From: a virus
Taxonomy: Duplodnaviria; Heunggongvirae; Uroviricota; Caudoviricetes
Virus record (IMG/VR): IMGVR_UViG_3300000357_000123
Reading direction: 5' to 3' (one strand)
DNA: 11,134 bases
Shown here in pieces: positions 207 through 10,864 of the stretch (position 1 is the stretch's first letter; each line of letters starts with the position of its first letter). The notes beneath the pieces are model-generated. The model was not told the origin of the DNA, did no database searches, and worked only from the letters and a program-made list of their open reading frames with translations. A program made the translations under genes and the position numbers.

Positions 207-1325
207 TCAAATAACCAACTTAACCCATTCCTGACCTCGAGTATCGTTATAGCGATCGGTGGTTGCCTGGACTTTATGTCCTAGTAATGTTTTTGTATCG
301 ATACCCTGTGCACGGTACAGCCGTTCTGATAGAGAGCGTTGTTCATGAAATGTTGGCGAAGTTTTTCCTGCTGGTGGAATTATCCCAGCCAGATCCCGTG
401 CTTTGGCAAAGTAGTCGCTCAGGTTGTCTTTACTCATCGGCTTCGGTTGTTTCTGGTGCCGACTATGGATTAGATATGGACTTAATATTCTGTCTCGGCA
501 CCCATCAATAACTTCTTTTAACGTTATCCCAATGGCATCACAGCGTAGTGTAAGCGGTAACGCCAGACGCATTCCGGTTTTTCCCTGGGTGATATGCAAG
601 TGTTCGTTCCACACATCTGAAAAACGCATGTGGCAAATGTCATCACGGCGCTGACCAGTAACAATCGCAAGAAGCATTGCGTTACGGATAAAGTGTTTTT
701 CAGGCGTTGCATTGTAAATTTTTTGCCAGTCTTCCATGGTGAGCCTGGCTCTGGTTACTTTAGGGATCGGTTTACGGGTAGCCTCCGGAGGATTCCATCC
801 AGGAGGAACTTCCCCTGCATGCTGTGCTTCTTTATAAATATCAACCCATAATCCACGATTTACTCTCGCTGTGCTGACCATGTCTTTATCCAGCCACTCA
901 TCCAGTATTAATGCAAAGTCTCTTACTTCCAGTTCTTTCAATGGGTGGTTTCCCAGACGGGAAACCAGGTATGCAGCCATTCGAGTTTTTTCTTTGTGAG
1001 TTGTAGCTGCAATATCTCCATTTTTCAGTCGCGTGTCCTGTATTTTCAGATATCGATCAACCCATGCCTTTAATCTGATACCCCGACGTTTTGTTGCTGA
1101 CGGACTTTCATCAATTTTGCGCATGAAATATTCAGCTTCTGCTGCAGCTATTCGCTGATTGGCTGTGGAAGCGATTTTTTCTGCCTTACCTTTGTCTGTT
1201 CCGAGTCCGTGAAATTTTCCAGTCACAGGATTTTTATACTGGTAGTAAACTCTGCCAGTTCTGCGATCAAACTTTTCGTAAAGACCGGCTACGTCAGTGC
1301 TGTTTTTTCGTGGCCTCGGTGACAT
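207..1325 (-). CDS. int: Lambda-family tyrosine integrase (site-specific recombinase)
   Basis: 372-aa ORF; C-terminal half aligns by eye with lambda Int (VTGQR, HEQRS, LLGHK, and the catalytic Tyr in TDRYNDTRG); AAGGAG RBS upstream of the ATG; the start lies within the 3' end of the upstream excisionase-like ORF if that ORF uses its alternative frame. Confidence 0.95.
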   Translation of the reverse strand: MSPRPRKNSTDVAGLYEKFDRRTGRVYYQYKNPVTGKFHGLGTDKGKAEKIASTANQRIAAAEAEYFMRKIDESPSATKRRGIRLKAWVDRYLKIQDTRLKNGDIAATTHKEKTRMAAYLVSRLGNHPLKELEVRDFALILDEWLDKDMVSTARVNRGLWVDIYKEAQHAGEVPPGWNPPEATRKPIPKVTRARLTMEDWQKIYNATPEKHFIRNAMLLAIVTGQRRDDICHMRFSDVWNEHLHITQGKTGMRLALPLTLRCDAIGITLKEVIDGCRDRILSPYLIHSRHQKQPKPMSKDNLSDYFAKARDLAGIIPPAGKTSPTFHEQRSLSERLYRAQGIDTKTLLGHKVQATTDRYNDTRGQEWVKLVI

Positions 1326-1340
1326 GAGTTAAAATCTCCT

Positions 1341-1643
1341 TCAGTGCATCATCATCGCCAGTATGAATTTCCGGCGCAATTCCCGTTTCACCAGGCCCAA
1401 CAAATACTGCTCGGCGATCTNNNNNNNNNNNNNNNNNNNNNNNNNNNNNNNNNNNNNNNNNNNNNNNNNNNNNNNNNNNNNNNNNNNNNNNNNNNNNNNN
1501 NNNNNNNNACGCCCACGAATTTTTTGTGGCCTTGGAACGATGTATCCTAGTTTTCCGTATTTCACCAGGGTAGTGTTTGTTATTGGGAGACTGAACCGTT
1601 TTGGTTTCCACTCGTCGAGCGTTATCAGGTACTGTTCGCTCAT
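1341..1643 (-). CDS. xis: Excisionase (Xis-like), interrupted by an N-run
   Basis: N-terminus MSEQYLITLDEWKPKRFSLPITNTTLVKYGKLGYIVPRPQKIRGR resembles lambda Xis (YLTLQEW ... IFPPPVKDGREYLF); ATG at 1643 with GGAG upstream; position immediately upstream of int. The C-terminus is uncertain because of the 1421-1508 gap: stop at 1341 in the gap-preserved frame, or at 1294 in the alternative frame that overlaps int. Confidence 0.7.
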   Translation of the reverse strand: MSEQYLITLDEWKPKRFSLPITNTTLVKYGKLGYIVPRPQKIRGRXXXXXXXXXXXXXXXXXXXXXXXXXXXXXXIAEQYLLGLVKRELRRKFILAMMMH

Positions 1644-1704: not shown

Positions 1705-4146
1705 TTAAAAATCAGCCTGACTCGGGATCAGTTTTTGCCAGATAACTGAAACGTATTTTGCCTGGTAACGGGCGTCATCAAGTGCATTATGGCGCTCACC
1801 TTCGAATGGAATAGCCGTTCTGGCATCGAAGTCTATGGCTTTCCCCAGCTCAACGATTGTGCGTACATCGCGATCGTTGTAGTAACGCCACGGGCAGGGG
1901 ATCCCCTGCCGTTCGTATGAACGGCGCAAAATCGTGTTGTCGAAGTTGGCTCCATTTCCCCAGACCTGAACAAAAAATTCACCGGAGTTTTCGTCGATAA
2001 ATTCCCGCAATTGTAACAGTGCATCATCTAACGGGATTTCATCGGTCATAATGGCAGATTGCGCTTCGCGTGATTGCTTAAGCCACCATTTAATGGTGTC
2101 CCGATCAATGACTCCGCCAGCAGTTTCCAGATCGATAGTCTTACTAAATTCCGGTCCCATATCTCCGGTTTGCGGATCGAAAAATATTGCACCTATTGAG
2201 ATGATCGGGGCATCAGGATTTTTTCCCATGGTTTCAAGGTCGATCATTAGATGGTCACACGTCCTGCTGGTGGATGTGATTTCTTGATGACCGTTCACCT
2301 TAATTGAGTGATCTGCCGTCTCGCCAGTTTCATTATCGCTATCGTGATGCTGATTGCCGCCAGTGTTCTCCTTGTGTGGATGTTCAGCGCCTTCCATTTC
2401 CTCCGGATCATCTTCCTGAACTTCAACCTGATACTCTTCATCGAATGTTTCCTGGTATGTTGCGTCGCCCATCACCGCGCCACAATCAGGGCAGTTGCCG
2501 CCGCCGGTCTGACCGCAGGCGGTGCAGACTTTTTCCACTTCCTGTTGCGCCACTGGTTCGGATTGTTTCGTTTCTGGCTCGTTTTGTAACGCATTTGGGC
2601 TGTTTTGTTCCGCTTTTTGGTCGTTCCGTTCCGATTCATGCTGGTTCTGGTTCACAGAATCGCGAGTCTGGATCCCTTTGACCCATTTCGGATCATTAGG
2701 GTCGCTAATCCCCTCAACAAATTCACCACGCGATACAGCAAGTAACTTATCGGCGTCAGGCTGGCTGATATTGGCTGCCTGCATAATTTTGTTTACTTCG
2801 TCAGCGGTGACTTTTACTTGGTTAGCGGAACTCACCTGCGACTGAGCATCCAGCGACTGCGCGTTCTGGCCATGTTCAGTTGTATCCGGTTCCATTGTTT
2901 CAGTTGTTGCCTGTTCACCTGCCATTGCGTCAGATGGTTGTGGTTTTTCTTCTTCTGTTTCACGCTCAGTAACCACCTCGCGGTTAATTTCTTCCAGGAT
3001 ATCTTTTTCCGGCGTATGCCGGGCAGCTGTGAGAGTTTCCTTGCTGGGGTTCTCGTGATCAGTTTCCGTCAAATAGGCGTTGATATACCCCTGAAGGCGT
3101 CCCGGGTAGTGATAAAATTCAGGGTGTGCGCTTCGGATAAGTGCAAAAATAGCGGCGCGGGAATAGTCCAGAATACCCGGGGTTGCACGAAGTGCTGCGG
3201 ACCATTCTTTGAACGGACTTTCTTTGTTCAGGACTACTTCTTTTGCGCGACGATAAACGCTGCCCGGAATTTCATAAATATTAAAATCCATCGGAAGTGT
3301 GGCTGCTGCAATCTCCACATCCAGTGTGTCGAGGGTGTGTACTAAATTCGGATTGCGATCGGTTTTGTTCCCACCGCCAGCATTAGCACCGGAAGCCGTG
3401 CGGGTGATGCGTGAAACACGATTTCCTTTCATCCACTCTTTTGTCAGCAAACCCCGATCAGTGTAGTCAGCGTCTAGGTATGCTTCGAAAAAAGCAGTTA
3501 TTAGTCCCAGGTCTGAATTACCAGGATTAGGGAAAACTTTGTCAGTGTCACGAACCAGTTTGTGGAGGTCGCGAATCTCCAGCGAGTCGAGCAGACTGGT
3601 TTTATGCGAAATAGCCAGGGCAGTAACAGCCGGTAGTTCTTCAGCCCGTGCAATGTGTAATGCCTGGAGTTCGTCGCGTGAAACGTGCGTTACTGGTTTT
3701 TCGCTGCCGTGTTGAGCAAGCCAACGAATGGGCAGTTCCTGACCGGAGACAGGCAGAAGCATGCTCTCCTCAATCTCAGTCATGGCTTCGCCGTTGATGT
3801 TGGTATTGTCAGTGCTGGCTGGTTTGTCCTGAACAGAGGGGGAAGGGCCGATAAATGTCATTGTGATGCCATCTTTCCCGCCTTTTTCATAGCGATTGCA
3901 GAATTCAGTATCAAACACGCCTTCTGGCGGAAGGTCGTCAACAACGGGCAAATTGACGCGGACGGGTTTTTTAAAGTCGTCTTCATCATAATCGTTGTCA
4001 TCCATTGCGGTAATGCAGCGGGAGATTGCAACAGATAATTTTTTTGCTGTAGTCCAGTAAAAACCACCTTTAATTCCTAGGCGTTTTCTTACTTTGTCAT
4101 TTTTTGCTTCGCAATATAGTGCAAATTCTTCTTTATCAGTGCTCAT
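1705..4146 (-). CDS. RecE-like (exodeoxyribonuclease VIII-like) N-terminal region fused to a C-terminal DEDDh (DnaQ-like) 3'-5' exonuclease domain; probable intact counterpart of Qin YdfE
   Basis: 813-aa ORF. The C-terminal 184 aa (about 1708-2259) carry the three classical DEDDh motifs: MIDLETMG (Exo I), [10 protein letters not shown] (Exo II), [11 protein letters not shown] (Exo III). A C-x2-C-x7-C-x2-C motif ([16 protein letters not shown], about 2479-2528) and an acidic/Q-rich low-complexity linker precede it. The N-terminal region resembles RecE-family prophage proteins from memory. The annotated ATG at 4146 lies 4 nt from the 4151-4247 N-run with no in-frame stop between, so the true N-terminus may be longer. 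Confidence 0.85.
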
Positions 4147-4330
4147 TATTNNNNNNNNNNNNNNNNNNNNNNNNNNNNNNNNNNNNNNNNNNNNNNNNNN
4201 NNNNNNNNNNNNNNNNNNNNNNNNNNNNNNNNNNNNNNNNNNNNNNNCCTCATCACAGATTTAAGGGTGAACAAATCTCTGCCATTGCTGACATATAAGA
4301 ATGAAACTGGATATTTATTACGGTGCTGTT

Positions 4331-4524
4331 TTAAAATCCTGCCGGGATTTCGTTATTATCCTGGTGAATAACTTTATCGACCGGATAACAGTTGCCTGGA
4401 ATTTTCTGTTCGGTTGCTGCTGCCATACATTCCTGCATTGTTCTGTGAACACTGACTGNNNNNNNNNNACTGACTCTCCGGAAACAAGAAAAACCGTCAG
4501 AATAAGTGCAAATACTGGATTCAT
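4331..4524 (-). CDS. ydfD: YdfD-like small protein with hydrophobic N-terminal segment (Qin YdfD lysis-protein family), interrupted by a 10-nt N-run
   Basis: ATG at 4524 overlaps the dicB stop (ATGA) and has an AGGA RBS; N-terminus MNPVFALILTVFLVSGES is TM/signal-like. After the 4459-4468 gap the protein-like frame is the one ending at 4331 (VSVHRTMQECMAAATEQKIPGNCYPVDKVIHQDNNEIPAGF); the gap-preserved frame ending at 4318 is K/R-rich and looks spurious. Confidence 0.55.
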
Positions 4525-4791
4525 TGTGCACATCCTTTTGGCATCAGACGTAAACGGGCCAGCATTGAAACAATGCATACTTTATTTAATAACTCCCNNN
4601 NNNNNNNNNNNNNNNNNNNNNNNNNNNNNNNNNNNNNNNNNNNNNNNNNNNNNNNNNNNNNNNNNNNNNNNNNNNNNNNNNNNNNNNNNNNNNNNNNNNN
4701 NNNNNNNNNNNNTAAATACAGGATTACTGATAGTGACACCAATTTCAAAACAACCTTCAGACGTATTAACGTTTGGTAATAACGTTTTCAT
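4521..4791 (-). CDS. dicB: Cell-division inhibitor DicB (MinC-activating), interrupted by an N-run
   Basis: N-terminus MKTLLPNVNTSEGCFEIGVTISNPVF and C-terminus ELLNKVCIVSMLARLRLMPKGCAQ match E. coli DicB as I recall it; GAGGG RBS 7 nt upstream of the ATG at 4791; sits immediately downstream of DicF as in the Qin dicB operon. The 115-nt N-run is longer than the roughly 33 nt expected for a 62-aa DicB. Confidence 0.8.
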
Positions 4792-5049
4792 TATCGCGCC
4801 CTCAACAATGAGTTTTGTGATGCGGTGCCTGGTGCCTCCAGGTGACGTTAACCAGTTAACAATTAACGCCGGATACAGAGAATCCACCCATAACACTGTT
4901 TTTGGTTTTAACTGTTCCGCGTGCGCTTANNNNNNNNNNNNNNNNNNNNNNNNNNNNNNNNNNNNNNNNNNNNNNNNNNNNNNNNNNNNNNNNNNNNNNN
5001 NNNNNNNNNNNNNNNNNNNNNNNNNNNNCCGCATCACAAAATTCACTTT

Positions 5050-5107
5050 AAAAAGGGCGGCAGAGCAGTCACGGAGTAAAACTGATACCGCCAAACGTCA
5101 CCAGAAA
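5050..5107 (-). ncRNA. dicF: DicF small regulatory RNA (Hfq-dependent; targets ftsZ and other mRNAs) with its rho-independent terminator
   Basis: Minus-strand sequence TTTCTGGTGACGTTTGGCGGTATCAGTTTTACTCCGTGACTGCTCTGCCGCCCTTTTT matches the E. coli DicF sequence from memory, including the GC stem (GGCGG...CCGCC) followed by a U-run; flanking sequence (AAAGTGAATTTTGTGATG) also matches the remembered dicF-dicB spacer. Confidence 0.85.
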
Positions 5108-5448: not shown

Positions 5449-5752
5449 TTAACGCGGGTATGTAATCATTCTGGCAATGCTTAATGCCGCTGCTTTTTCC
5501 AGCCTGGTGATATCCTGCTCCAGAGCGGACAGATTTTCAGCCTGCTTAGCTCTGGCTTCATNNNNNNNNNNNNNNNNNNNNNNNNNNNNNNNNNNNNNNN
5601 NNNNNNNNNNNNNNNNNNNNNNNNNNNNNNNNNNNNNNNNNNNNNNNNNNNCATTTCAGATCCTGCGCTGCATTAATTTTCTGGCGCATCCACTCATAAA
5701 GTTCATCATCGGTATAGTCTGGCGCGATGATGACGGGTTCTCGTTTCTGCAT
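5449..5752 (-). CDS. ydfC: YdfC-like small protein of the dicB operon, interrupted by an N-run
   Basis: ATG at 5752 with a GAGGA RBS 6 nt upstream; N-terminus MQKREPVIIAPDYTDDELYEWMRQKINAAQDLK; after the 5562-5651 gap the only protein-like frame reads EARAKQAENLSALEQDITRLEKAAALSIARMITYPR and stops at 5449. Visible residues sum to 68, close to the roughly 72 aa I recall for YdfC, so the real gap is probably about 12 nt rather than 90. Confidence 0.6.
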
Positions 5753-5781: not shown

Positions 5782-5991
5782 TCAGCCGTTAGATTTTGCC
5801 GAACTGGAAAGCGCCTGTTTAAATTCGTTGAAGCTGTGAGCTTCTTCGCCTTCGGCAAGGCCTTCGAAGNNNNNNNNNNNNNNNNNNNNNNNNNNNNNNN
5901 NNNNNNNNNNNNNNNNNNNNNNNNNNNNNNNNNNNNNNNNNNNNNNNNNNNNNNNNNNNNNNNNNNNTTCCATGATTGTGTCAAAATCCAT
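5782..5991 (-). CDS. ydfB: YdfB-like small protein of the dicB operon, interrupted by an N-run
   Basis: ATG at 5991 is 1 nt downstream of the ydfA-like stop (TGAtATG) with a GGTGAG RBS; N-terminus MDFDTIME; after the 5870-5967 gap the frame reads FEGLAEGEEAHSFNEFKQALSSSAKSNG and stops at 5782. Confidence 0.5.
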   Translation of the reverse strand: MDFDTIMEXXXXXXXXXXXXXXXXXXXXXXXXXXXXXXXXXFEGLAEGEEAHSFNEFKQALSSSAKSNG

Positions 5992-6610: not shown

Positions 6611-7165
6611 TTACTGGTTGTACGGTTCGATCNNNNNNNNNNNNNNNNNNNNNNNNNNNNNNNNNNNNNNNNNNNNNNNNNNNNNNNNNNNNNNNNNNNN
6701 NNNNNNNNNNNNNNNNNNNNNNNNNNNNNNNNNTGTTGAACCATTTGGGATGGAAACTCCCCCACCAGATGTTGACATACTGTCACTCTCTAGAACAACT
6801 GCAAAGGTATTGACCGGGATTTCTCCGACAAGCTGCACACAAGAGGTTATTGAGGAATTTTTCATATAATCACTCCAGCTTGCTGCCTGCTGAAGTGATA
6901 GTAGCGGAACCGTTTTTATCGGCGGTAAAGATAGATCAAGCGAATCACCTGTATTTAACTCTCCTCCATTAAGAAGCCAATTTTCGTTTACTTTCAATAT
7001 TTTTGCCAGTGAACTTATGTAACGCGAGGACGGCGCTCCTCCACCGTTCATCCATTGACTTACGGAGCCTTTTGATGCGCCAGTGCCATTGACAAGGTCT
7101 TTGCCTTTCAGGTTTAGCGCATGCATACGTTGGGTTATGCGTTCAGATATAGTTTGCTTGCTCAT
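6611..7165 (-). CDS. cI: CI-type prophage repressor (XRE-family HTH N-terminal domain plus S24 LexA-like autopeptidase C-terminal domain), interrupted by an N-run
   Basis: 184-aa ORF; HTH signature (GTGASKGSVSQWMNGGGAPSSRYISSLAKILKVNENWLLNG); S24 catalytic-serine motif ESDSM followed by the glycine-rich loop. Divergent from the cro-like gene across a 91-bp region. The C-terminal domain looks too short (about 54 aa after the Ser), so the 6633-6733 N-run probably hides more sequence than its length. Confidence 0.85.
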   Translation of the reverse strand: MSKQTISERITQRMHALNLKGKDLVNGTGASKGSVSQWMNGGGAPSSRYISSLAKILKVNENWLLNGGELNTGDSLDLSLPPIKTVPLLSLQQAASWSDYMKNSSITSCVQLVGEIPVNTFAVVLESDSMSTSGGGVSIPNGSTXXXXXXXXXXXXXXXXXXXXXXXXXXXXXXXXXXIEPYNQ

Positions 7166-7256: not shown

Positions 7257-7576
7257 ATGAAAAAATCAGAAGTATTAGGCTATTTTGNNNNNNNNNNNNN
7301 NNNNNNNNNNNNNNNNNNNNNNNNNNNNNNNNNNNNNNNNNNNNNNNNNNNNNNNNNNNNNNNNNNNNNNNNNNNNNNNNNNNNNNNNNNCTAGGAACGT
7401 CAAAAACCACAGTCAGCATGTGGGGGGAAGAGGTTCCGTGGAAATGGGCGTTGCTAATTCAGGCAGTCACTGCCGGGGCGCTCAAATATGAGTTACACAT
7501 ACCGACGGTTGTCATTCCCGGTTCTGATCATAATCCGCCTTCTAACCAAGGGGGGATTCATGAAAATCAAGCATGA
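7257..7576 (+). CDS. Cro/YdaS-like small HTH regulator, interrupted by an N-run
   Basis: ATG at 7257 with GGAG 6 nt upstream (MKKSEVLGYF...); after the 7288-7390 gap the protein-like frame reads LGTSKTTVSMWGEEVPWKWALLIQAVTAGALKYELHIPTVVIPGSDHNPPSNQGGIHENQA with TGA at 7574-7576; first gene rightward of the repressor. Confidence 0.6.
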
Positions 7577-8056: not shown

Positions 8057-9210
8057 ATGGCTAACGCCTGGCTCAGATTATGGCATGACATGCCAAATGA
8101 CCCTAAGTGGCGAACAATTGCCAGGGTGTCAGGGCAGCCAATTGCAACAGTGATGGCAGTGTATATCCACCTCCTGGTGAGCGCGTCACGAAATGTCACG
8201 CGAGGTCACATTGATGTCACGACAGAAGATTTGGCAAGTGCGCTCGACGTGACAGAAGAGGTAATTGATTCAATTTTGCAGACGATGCAGGGGCGGGTAC
8301 TTGATGGTGATTTAATCACTGGATGGGAAAAACGCCAGGTGCTGAAAGAGGACAACGGCAATATTTCGCAAACCGCAAAATCTCCGGCAGAGCGCAAGAG
8401 GGCGCAGCGAGAGAGGGAAAGAAAGCGGGAACAAAATGGCGATTGTCACGGCGAGTCACGAAATGTCACGCACATGTCACGACGAGTCACGACAGATAAA
8501 GATACAGATAAAGATACAGATCAAGAAGATCAAAACACTATGGTCCATGGCGTAAAAAACGCCACGAACCAGGCAGGGGATGTTCAGACCGTCACTCCTG
8601 GCCAGCCCGCAGGCACGACACCGGAAGCCGATTCAGCGTATGCGCTGAAAGCCGATTCGGGCGCTGTGCAGCAGGTGATGACCGCAAGGCAGGAGCAATC
8701 ACACCAACTTCAGCAGCCTGAAGCCGATTCCGCCATTCAGCGGGAAGCCGATCGGGTAGTCCCGGAAAACACCGGGCAGCCTGTGGGACGAGTGGATTAT
8801 CCTGATGTGTTCGAACAGGTCTGGCGGGAATACCCGTTGCGTGCCGGGGCAAACCCGAAGAANNNNNNNNNNNNNNNNNNNNNNNNNNNNNNNNNNNNNN
8901 NNNNNNNNNNNNNNNNNNNNNNNNNNNNNNNNNNNNNNNNNNNNNNNNNNNNNNNNNNNNNNNNNNNNNNNNNTTACGCGAGGGGGTGCCACCAGAGGCC
9001 ATGCTGGATGGCGTGAGGCGTTACGCAAGATACCTTGCGGCTACCGGGAAAACGGGAACGGAATTTGTTCAGCGAGCGACGACGTTTTTTGGACCGGACC
9101 GGAATTTTGAAAACCCCTGGCTGCTCCCGGTAAGCGGCACGAACAACCAGCGTTGTGTGAATCATATTTCTGAACCGGATAACGAAATTCCGCCGGGCTT
9201 CAGGGGGTAA
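8057..9210 (+). CDS. Replication initiation / replisome-organizer protein (YdaU/DUF1376-like N-terminus) containing the probable origin iterons, interrupted by an N-run
   Basis: ATG at 8057 after GAGGTG; N-terminus MANAWLRLWHDMPNDPKWRTIARV fits the phage replisome-organizer N-terminal pattern (W.KL... DPK) as I recall it. After the 8863-8973 gap the protein-like frame (LREGVPPEAMLDGVRRYARYLAATGKTGTEFVQRATTFFGPDRNFENPWLLP...) runs to TAA at 9208-9210. The gap-preserved frame ends at 9016, so one gene versus two is unresolved. Confidence 0.6.
8185..8221 (+). repeat. Iteron array 1: four direct GTCAC(G/A) repeats at 10-11 bp spacing
   Basis: GTCACG at 8185, 8195 and 8216 and GTCACA at 8205; an inverted copy CGTGAC at 8248-8253; the 17-mer GTCACGAAATGTCACGC is repeated exactly at 8455-8471. 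Confidence 0.5.
8445..8516 (+). repeat. Iteron array 2: five direct GTCACG repeats at 10-11 bp spacing followed by a tandem 12-bp A-rich repeat
   Basis: GTCACG at 8445, 8455, 8465, 8476 and 8486; then GATAAAGATACA twice (8493-8516) and an A-rich stretch, resembling an iteron-plus-AT-rich origin layout. Confidence 0.5.
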
Positions 9211-9730: not shown

Positions 9731-10087
9731 ATGGAAATAAAACCAGAGGATGAGTTAAGCAATATCGTTTTATTTCCGGTAAAAGAGGATGACCCTCGTA
9801 ATCAGGTTAATTTTCTTTATGAGCCATCGGAAAGACCATATTGTCATCACGCCTCTGTCCGGGTTGACGAAAAAGAGCGTCAGGTCCGCTGTAAAATCTG
9901 CGGTGCAGTTGTGGAGCCATTTGACTGGATGCTCTCTGTGGCGAAAAGAGAAACCAGACTGGCAGATGATGTAAGGCTCTTGCGTCAGGAGGAGCGGGAA
10001 AGGCGAAAAAATATAGAAAAGCTAATTCAGATTGAGCGTAACGCGAAAGCGCGGATACGCAGGGCGACAAAATCCAGAACTGAATAA
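9731..10087 (+). CDS. Hypothetical small protein with a putative zinc-binding motif and a basic, coiled-coil-like C-terminal tail
   Basis: ATG at 9731 with GGAGAGGAG immediately upstream; 118 aa; motif CHH-x14-C-x2-C (PYCHHASVRVDEKERQVRCKICG) followed by a K/R/E-rich tail. An alternative GTG start at 9674 abuts the upstream stop but lacks an RBS. Confidence 0.6.
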   Translation: MEIKPEDELSNIVLFPVKEDDPRNQVNFLYEPSERPYCHHASVRVDEKERQVRCKICGAVVEPFDWMLSVAKRETRLADDVRLLRQEERERRKNIEKLIQIERNAKARIRRATKSRTE

Positions 10088-10156
10088 TTAAATTTAGCTC
10101 TGTTAAAAATTTAATCCTTAACCGGAGGGATTTCTGCACCCTCAGAACATCAGGAG

Positions 10157-10174
10157 GCCGCCCGAAAGGGCGGT
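10157..10174 (+). promoter_or_regulatory. Stable GC hairpin with GAAA tetraloop between the Shine-Dalgarno and the start codon of the next gene
   Basis: CCGCCC (10158-10163) pairs with GGGCGG (10168-10173) around a GAAA loop; AGGAGG at 10152-10157 immediately 5'; ATG at 10181. Confidence 0.4.
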
Positions 10175-10180
10175 AGTTAA

Positions 10181-10363
10181 ATGCGAAAGTTTAAAATAAT
10201 TATTGAAACGGGAATAGCCGGTGGAGATTTCGAGGATGAATTCGAAGTGGATGATGATGCGACGCCTGATGAAATACATGACGAAGCAAAAGATATTTTC
10301 TTTAACTACTGCAATTACTCATATCACGAAATAAAAGACAAAGAGGAAGAACAAAATGGCTGA
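10181..10363 (+). CDS. Small highly acidic hypothetical protein (60 aa)
   Basis: Uninterrupted ORF MRKFKIIIETGIAGGDFEDEFEVDDDATPDEIHDEAKDIFFNYCNYSYHEIKDKEEEQNG with 19 Asp/Glu against 6 Lys/Arg; start context described in the hairpin feature. Confidence 0.55.
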   Translation: MRKFKIIIETGIAGGDFEDEFEVDDDATPDEIHDEAKDIFFNYCNYSYHEIKDKEEEQNG

Positions 10364-10610
10364 TTTTGGTTCAACTAAATACAACGTCAGTTTTGAAGAA
10401 TGGCATGAACTGTTANNNNNNNNNNNNNNNNNNNNNNNNNNNNNNNNNNNNNNNNNNNNNNNNNNNNNNNNNNNNNNNNNNNNNNNNNNNNNNNNNNNNN
10501 NNNNNNNNNNNNNTGGTGGCAGTGCTGCTGATGCTGAAGCATGGCGTGATGATTATGAAGCAGGAAAAACTCCGGTCGAAGCATATTGTGATGAGTGGGG
10601 CGATGAATGA
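10356..10610 (+). CDS. Small acidic hypothetical protein, interrupted by an N-run
   Basis: ATG at 10356 with an AGAGGA RBS 8 nt upstream, overlapping the previous stop; visible parts MADFGSTKYNVSFEEWHELL and GGSAADAEAWRDDYEAGKTPVEAYCDEWGDE; stop TGA at 10608-10610 overlaps the next ATG (ATGA). Frame across the 10416-10513 gap is unverified. Confidence 0.5.
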   Translation: MADFGSTKYNVSFEEWHELLXXXXXXXXXXXXXXXXXXXXXXXXXXXXXXXXXGGSAADAEAWRDDYEAGKTPVEAYCDEWGDE

Positions 10611-10864
10611 GCGAGGTTAATTATCAGGAAGGGCATGAAACGGCGGGGCAAGCAAAAACAGTGGCATGGCGATATCGCTACGTGAAAAAAAAGGCGTTAC
10701 GGACTTTCAGGGGAAGTAGTGGTCTGGTGACTGGAAATATGTACCGAAAAAAGAGGATTGTAACGACAGGCCGAACTATGAAATTCAGGCCTTATTCACT
10801 GCCTCGCCAGTCCCGGTTACATCAGAAGAACTGGTTAAAGCTGTGCACTTTTATGAACAACTAA
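10607..10864 (+). CDS. Hypothetical ORF (85 aa) with possible recoding or decay; product uncertain
   Basis: ATG at 10607 coupled to the upstream stop. The N-terminal part is plausible, but the C-terminal part is K/R-rich and overlaps a better-looking open frame (10720-10920, -1 frame, no start codon). Two A_AAA_AAG heptamers lie in frame at 10687-10693 and 10747-10753. Confidence 0.3.
   Translation: MSEVNYQEGHETAGQAKTVAWRYRYVKKKALRTFRGSSGLVTGNMYRKKRIVTTGRTMKFRPYSLPRQSRLHQKNWLKLCTFMNN

Follow-up and report, generated by a model that had tools for sequence, protein, structure and literature searches.

Two conserved small acidic proteins from the early region of an E. coli lambdoid prophage as candidate inhibitors of host DNA-processing or defence proteins

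Background

T7 Ocr (116 aa) and plasmid ArdA (166 aa), both much larger than the proteins described here, are elongated dimers which imitate long stretches of DNA. The genes encoding lambda Gam and T7 gp5.9 adjoin phage exonuclease or recombination genes. T7 Gp2 is an RNA polymerase inhibitor with a negatively charged strip, and T4 Dmd is an antitoxin directed against RnlA/LsoA. Small size and high acidity are regarded as hallmarks of DNA mimicry; the gp5.9 dimer is a parallel coiled coil and that of Gam is helical, and P22 Arf, which is small, acidic and encoded in a recombination region, may be another DNA mimic (PMC9836394).

Here we describe two adjacent genes, ORF1 and ORF2, whose small acidic products were proposed in an initial annotation to be DNA mimics or anti-defence factors of the Ocr or ArdA kind. 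Both proteins resemble Ocr and ArdA in acidic charge density and early expression. With gp5.9 and Gam they share small size, high acidity, a non-enzymatic nature and an origin in the early genes of a phage, and gp5.9 is of about the same length (its residues 1-49 have been modelled; PMC9836394). They differ from gp5.9 and Gam in predicted fold (beta-beta-alpha-beta for ORF1, a three-helix bundle for ORF2) and in that they do not lie beside recombination genes in the DNA analysed here. P22 Arf is comparable as a small acidic protein, in its case encoded in a phage recombination region. By HMM score ORF1 and ORF2 are bona fide members of DUF7167, phrog_1997 and phrog_519, families without assigned function.

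Results and discussion

Setting of the acidic pair

The window (the whole 11,134-nucleotide stretch of DNA that was analysed) is the early region of a Rac/Qin-like lambdoid prophage of E. coli. Its genes run in the order integrase, excisionase, 813-aa exonuclease, dicB-dicF-ydfC, cI-like repressor, cro, YdaT-like, O-like and DUF977, followed by the acidic pair. The features discussed below are:

207-1325, minus strand: integrase
1705-4146, minus strand: 813-aa 'exonuclease VIII', a composite protein
5055-5106, minus strand: full-length DicF antisense sRNA (Rfam RF00039, 76.7 bits), adjoining dicB
9731-10087, plus strand: upstream companion, a 118-aa basic protein (pI about 8.5-8.9; phrog_1621, E 1.8e-56)
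10152-10183, plus strand: ORF1 leader, with AGGAGG at 10152-10157, a hairpin at 10157-10174 and the AUG at 10181
10181-10363, plus strand: ORF1, 60-aa DUF7167 protein, net charge -13, pI 4.13
10356-10610, plus strand: ORF2, phrog_519 family, 58 aa, net charge -12, pI 4.05
10607-10864, plus strand: ORF3, frameshifted remnant of the next cassette gene, with the frame shift at an A8 run near 10685

The presence of DicF beside dicB identifies the left arm of the window as a Qin-type dicBF cell-division-inhibition operon. The acidic pair occupies what we take, by analogy with lambda, to be the nin-type accessory region running from the replication genes to the Q antiterminator. A scan of the plus strand between 9000 and 11134 predicted neither a promoter nor a terminator, and ORF1 and ORF2 should therefore belong to the delayed-early rightward transcript. 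The early-region position attributed to the pair is supported, and can be specified as the delayed-early accessory region.

The 'exonuclease VIII' joins an Exonuc_VIII N-terminal region (residues 57-189) to a C-terminal Rv2179c-like 3'-5' exonuclease (residues 632-803) through a linker that is long, acidic and of low complexity. The gene is frameshifted in one of the genomes with 100 % identity.

True length of ORF2, acidity and coding status of the pair

Eleven runs of N interrupt the window (1421-1508, 4151-4247, 4459-4468, 4598-4712, 4930-5028, 5562-5651, 5870-5967, 6633-6733, 7288-7390, 8863-8973 and 10416-10513). Alignment of the window to records that are 99.7-100 % identical showed that the masks are padded in all eleven, 88-115 N standing for 5-33 real bases in every case measured, so that the length or frame of any ORF crossing a mask in the window is unreliable. 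ORF2 is one of these: its mask of 98 N at 10416-10513 replaces 20 real bases (atggactatgcagagttacg), and the real protein is 58 aa long (177 nt), MADFGSTKYNVSFEEWHELLMDYAELRGGSAADAEAWRDDYEAGKTPVEAYCDEWGDE, the length at which it is annotated in both RefSeq and GenBank. The start at 10356 and the stop at 10610 given in the initial annotation stand, and the length of 84 aa is an artefact of the masking.

The acidity claimed for both proteins is confirmed, in the case of ORF2 for the real 58-aa product. ORF1 contains 19 acidic and 6 basic residues (32 % D+E) and ORF2 16 and 4 (28 % D+E), making them the most acidic among the 24 annotated proteins of a near-identical prophage. Given the residue composition of the other 22 of these proteins, so low a net charge would be expected in a fraction of about 5e-4 (ORF1) or 1e-3 (ORF2) of equally long random proteins. 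In small size combined with strong acidity, both proteins match the DNA-mimic class.

Comparison of diverged copies gave pN/pS values of approximately 0.1 for ORF1 and 0-0.15 in most pairs of ORF2, from which we conclude that both are real protein-coding genes under purifying selection. The 8-nt overlap of ORF1 with ORF2 (ATGGCTGA) implies that their translation is coupled, and the stop of ORF2 overlaps the start of ORF3 (ATGA) in a manner typical of translational coupling.

Leader of ORF1

The AGGAGG upstream of ORF1 lies 23 nt from the AUG, a distance that is reduced to about 7 nt if the intervening hairpin is folded out. This hairpin has a 7-bp G+C stem and a GAAA loop (GCCGCCC-GAAA-GGGCGGU) and is present in the minimum free energy fold of 10120-10200 (-23.9 kcal/mol, z -2.2). 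It is ruled out as a terminator, since the terminator scan found no U-tract. An identical leader accompanies ORF1 in the nin and ea contexts alike, and among the copies compared no compensatory changes or covariation were found in the stem; DUF7167 genes in other genera lack this leader and have ordinary Shine-Dalgarno spacing. The arrangement recalls that of T4 gene 38.

Two families of small acidic proteins

ORF1 matches Pfam DUF7167 (PF23768) over the entire profile (positions 1-60 of 60) with 55.1 bits, compared to a cut-off of 24.4 (E 8.3e-15), and phrog_1997 with E 9.6e-31; the RefSeq protein identical to it is named 'DUF7167 family protein'. ORF2 matches phrog_519 (E 4.5e-23, 83.2 bits) at profile positions 76-137 of 143 only, and has no match in Pfam (E up to 5) or NCBIfam. 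The earlier statement that neither protein is recognisable by sequence therefore applies to ORF2 with respect to Pfam and NCBIfam, and is incorrect for ORF1.

Profile searches also detected DUF7167 in Klebsiella, Citrobacter, Yersinia and Pseudomonas genomes, and tblastn in large Enterococcus phages. All members are 51-64 aa long and share invariant or near-invariant elements, namely an N-terminal M-R-K/R, I-E-T, F-E-V, D-D-A-T-x-E-E-I and A-K-D-I-F, together with one conserved Cys and an acidic tail, with M1, R2, I8, E9, T10, E22, V23, A27, T28, I32, A36, F40 and C44 invariant when scored across members from E. coli, Klebsiella and Enterococcus phages. The acidity is itself conserved, with net charges of -10 to -16 in 35 members at down to 37 % identity. 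An EF-hand-like reading of the segment DDDATPDE was rejected by inspection, as the spacing is off by one and the segment fits a helix N-cap.

For the ORF2 family, an exhaustive profile search of 1.84 billion representatives returned only 67 relatives, nearly all of them stand-alone proteins of 48-70 aa, which share the motif F..W...L...A...G....D..AW..DY..G.TP.EA..DEWG. By tblastn the family is present in 202 phage records, mostly Ackermannviridae (Kuttervirus, Taipeivirus). Net charge ranges from -4 to -15, with a median of -10 (39 members). One 127-aa protein (P0145) carries the ORF2 domain at its C-terminus; it was checked as a possible ORF1-ORF2 fusion and is not one.

Homology to a structural or metabolic family, which would have spoken against an anti-defence role, was searched for and not found for either protein: no structural, metabolic or defence family was matched in Pfam, PHROG, NCBIfam or PADLOC, the last at E up to 1 for its defence-system HMMs. 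Searches of PDB chains with both proteins and with the ORF2-family profile returned nothing below E 0.1. A faint resemblance of the N-terminal half of ORF2 to the ribbon-helix-helix protein 2k9i (E 0.3) was set aside in view of the predicted three-helix bundle and of an acidity far too high for DNA binding. The literature search found no mention of DUF7167, the RefSeq accessions, phrog_1997 or the peptide sequences, and for phrog_519 found a single mention, a machine-learning prediction, in which PaCRISPR, without experiment, called the family an anti-CRISPR in Kuttervirus genomes (PMC9409062). Comparisons by Pfam and PHROG identifiers, accessions and peptide fragments found neither family in the EVADES anti-defence catalogue supplements, and comparisons by peptide fragment found neither in those of two large phage accessory-gene screens. 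The window contains no HTH gene directly 3' of ORF2 that would suggest an aca-type linkage.

Predicted folds

ORF1 is predicted by AlphaFold2 (mean pLDDT 78) to form a beta1(2-10)-beta2(15-23)-alpha(29-39)-beta3(45-51) domain followed by a disordered acidic tail, KDKEEEQNG. The prediction for ORF2 is a three-helix bundle with helices at 13-27, 34-42 and 47-55 (pLDDT 87, pTM 0.70). There is no room for a catalytic site in either protein. No sequence or fold similarity to Ocr, ArdA, Gam, gp5.9 or other solved DNA mimics was found for ORF1 or ORF2. The Pfam models for Ocr and ArdA are not matched at E up to 1 (ORF1) or 5 (ORF2), and the predicted folds are not of the elongated dimeric type found in those proteins, so that the proposed likeness to Ocr and ArdA fails on both sequence family and fold. 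Neither protein shows the helical dimer or coiled-coil fold of Gam and gp5.9, or homology to them.

The sole structural neighbours of ORF1 of the same size are weak matches to the early phage inhibitors T7 Gp2 and T4 Dmd, which like ORF1 combine a three-stranded sheet with one helix in ~60 aa. Both were rejected as homologues by hhalign, and ORF1 lacks the combination of fold, homology and jaw-binding arginines in strand 3 that marks the Gp2 family.

A mobile cassette in E. coli lambdoid phages

The cassette, as a 601-bp region, matches 2520 of 5426 complete E. coli genomes, at up to six places per genome. ORF1 and ORF2 occur together in all 80 close E. coli viral contigs, and their start-to-start offset is 175 nt in 79 of the 80 loci. 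The phrog_1621 gene upstream, whose product has a zinc-ribbon-like Cys/His cluster (weak Zn_Ribbon_TF match) and a C-terminal coiled-coil, is present in 78 of the 80. The Stx phage ArgO145 carries the same cassette, with the same overlap and with the phrog_1621 gene upstream, in its leftward (ea) accessory region, where the surrounding genes are Ead/Ea22-like or encode a methyltransferase, an anti-repressor and a toxin-antitoxin pair. Since it is found in both nin and ea regions, we regard it as a mobile early-accessory cassette of lambdoid phages. Between the zinc-ribbon gene and ORF1, ArgO145 also has gp16 (70 aa, net charge -7; locus L008, 4580-4792), which brings the small acidic genes there to three.

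Among 195 fetched loci, 138 carry both families, nearly all with the spacing of the E. coli-type cassette, 34 carry DUF7167 only and 22 the ORF2 family only. The two families are paired only in E. coli lambdoid phages. As they are apart in 56 of the 194 loci carrying either, and as both proteins are strongly negative, we take the two to have independent functions, and on the same grounds we rejected a functional ORF1-ORF2 complex.

Gene neighbours in other phage lineages

Outside the E. coli cassette, relatives of both proteins are found next to recombination genes in several lineages. In Klebsiella Guernseyvirinae the DUF7167 gene and the start of a DUF2800/PD-(D/E)XK nuclease gene overlap, with genes for an Enc34-type ssDNA-binding protein and a DNA polymerase coming next, and in a Klebsiella prophage DUF7167 follows genes for a Rad52-type annealase, SSB and an Rv2179c-like exonuclease. 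Genes of the ORF2 family directly follow RecT and a YqaJ exonuclease in locus L098, and are preceded by a DUF3799 nuclease and RecT in L097, by a DUF2800 nuclease and a weakly Enc34-like protein in L101, and in L115 by an AAA_24 (Sak4-like) ATPase and a gene whose sequence was read as that of an SSB. In this window and in Klebsiella nin regions, no recombination gene adjoins the pair or its relatives. The same holds for Ackermannviridae, whose ORF2 homologue is found in a cluster of small genes after the major capsid gene. No single partner gene was found to track either family across lineages. The association of both families with recombination genes is suggestive only, early operons being crowded with both types of gene.

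Genes encoding ASCH/DUF3850 proteins adjoin both DUF7167 (Enterococcus phages, locus L005, 2513-3013) and the ORF2 family (L098, 4140-4673), and in L114 a gene judged ASCH-like by eye (4626-4928) is separated by one gene from the ORF2 homologue upstream of it. The 'exonuclease' annotated beside DUF7167 in Enterococcus phages is a misnomer for such a DUF3850/ASCH protein.

Possible functions

What this analysis yields is a cleaned-up description of the pair, comprising a corrected length, families, predicted folds, distribution and context. With regard to function, the part of the initial proposal that survives is that both proteins are small, conservedly acidic and encoded at a delayed-early accessory position; any similarity to Ocr, ArdA or other solved mimics does not. 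The anti-defence reading is plausible, and no better supported than it would be for many small acidic phage ORFs. We consider the pair to be legitimate and fairly ordinary anti-defence candidates, whose main attraction is that the families are very widespread and uncharacterised.

The reading we favour, tentatively, is that ORF1 and ORF2 are stoichiometric acidic inhibitors of a host DNA-processing or defence protein, or of one belonging to a rival element. The two are independent, horizontally mobile, delayed-early accessory genes that, on this reading, have been joined as one coupled cassette in E. coli lambdoids. Each protein would be a stand-alone domain of ~50 residues, compact and non-enzymatic, in which the dense negative charge of the surface would itself be under selection. 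It would bind the nucleic-acid-binding surface of its target and so block the access of that target to phage DNA, a binding logic like that of Gam, gp5.9, Ocr and Gp2. The likeliest class of target would be a RecBCD-like nuclease acting on phage DNA ends or recombination intermediates, followed by restriction or DNA-sensing defence complexes. That the proteins inhibit by binding, which target they bind and whether they mimic DNA are matters of inference. The relatives that lie beside recombination genes occupy the slot of the RecBCD inhibitors Gam and gp5.9, which makes a RecBCD-type target at least as likely as a type I one; the context in other phages points, if weakly, to a Gam/gp5.9-like inhibition of host nucleases no less than to alleviation of type I restriction.

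Were the proteins instead Ocr/ArdA-like DNA mimics, they would relieve type I or other restriction by entering the DNA-binding groove of the R-M complex. We consider this quite improbable, given the lack of Pfam matches at permissive E-values and of fold similarity to DNA mimics noted above; moreover, ~50 structured residues are far shorter than the DNA segment that Ocr and ArdA imitate, so that a monomer would need to oligomerise, and lambdoid phages normally alleviate restriction via Ral/Lar. In its favour are the orphan DNA methyltransferases encoded close to the cassette in ArgO145, which are a further kind of anti-restriction device, the methyltransferase genes, read from motifs, near ORF2-family genes in L097 and L098, and the fact that the size of the proteins and their 28-32 % D+E are within the range of known DNA mimics (PMC9836394). 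Another possibility is that both proteins inhibit host machinery without mimicry, ORF1 as a Gp2-like RNA polymerase binder or a Dmd-like antidote to a host toxin or RNase and ORF2 as a small helical adaptor, in which case the acidity would serve solubility or docking to a basic patch. We think this unlikely.

It is likewise unlikely that the two are phage-intrinsic accessory factors, that is, Arf-like acidic partners or regulators of phage recombination or replication proteins. The recurrence of both families beside exonuclease, annealase and SSB genes in several lineages would fit such a role, as would the location of the pair directly downstream of the replication genes in the window, and the conservation of DUF7167 from enterobacterial to Enterococcus phages is what would be expected with a partner on the phage side. 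However, the adjoining systems are unrelated to one another (RecT/YqaJ, DUF2800/Enc34, Rad52/SSB, AAA_24), so that there is no single co-varying phage partner, recombination genes are not adjacent in the window or in Ackermannviridae, and the cassette is often lost or pseudogenised where its neighbours are kept, as expected of dispensable accessory genes. Antitoxin- or chaperone-like neutralisation of the basic zinc-ribbon/coiled-coil protein encoded at 9731-10087 is suggested by its co-occurrence with the pair in the E. coli loci and by the opposite charges, which would favour binding. We hold this to be highly improbable, since the phrog_1621 gene accompanies neither acidic family outside E. 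coli and is separated from ORF1 by the inserted gene in ArgO145. There is a small chance that the functions lie beyond all of these readings.

Returning to inhibition by stoichiometric binding, its most far-reaching form would be that DUF7167 and the mini-domain of phrog_519 represent two new families without structural precedent, whose acidic members, perhaps acting as DNA mimics, inhibit a host nuclease or a complex of DNA-sensing defence, with RecBCD and restriction/BREX-type systems as examples. We regard this as doubtful. If true, such inhibitors would be carried by approximately half of E. coli genomes and, apart from each other, by phages of Klebsiella and Enterococcus and by Ackermannviridae, and would be among the most widespread uncharacterised anti-defence genes of enterobacterial prophages. 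Should either protein prove to block a nuclease or a defence system of the host, the few known DNA-mimic and acidic inhibitors would be joined by one with a new fold, a DUF found in about half of the E. coli genomes sequenced would gain a function, and inhibitor-sensing defences (PARIS, retron Ec48) would have a new probe or trigger.

Decay and unusual records of the cassette

Premature stops are present in a few copies of the cassette from cryptic prophages, including W37* in ORF2 of vB_EcoM-606R7 (locus L013, 1676-1852) and K37* in ORF1 of PhiR42_1 (L014, 1501-1683). Purifying selection overall notwithstanding, these point to continuing decay of the cassette in some cryptic prophages. The equivalent of ORF3 is labelled 'frameshifted; internal stop' in RefSeq, and its intact relatives, in L116 and L117, are 171 aa long and have no Pfam match. 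A phage record attributed to Actinobacillus pleuropneumoniae (PP818812.1, 'Actinobacillus phage vB_Apl-pPE4'; L016, 1501-1852) contains a copy of the E. coli cassette that is ~91 % identical in DNA and encodes the same ORF2 protein as E. coli, and reflects either a wrongly assigned host or contamination by an E. coli prophage.
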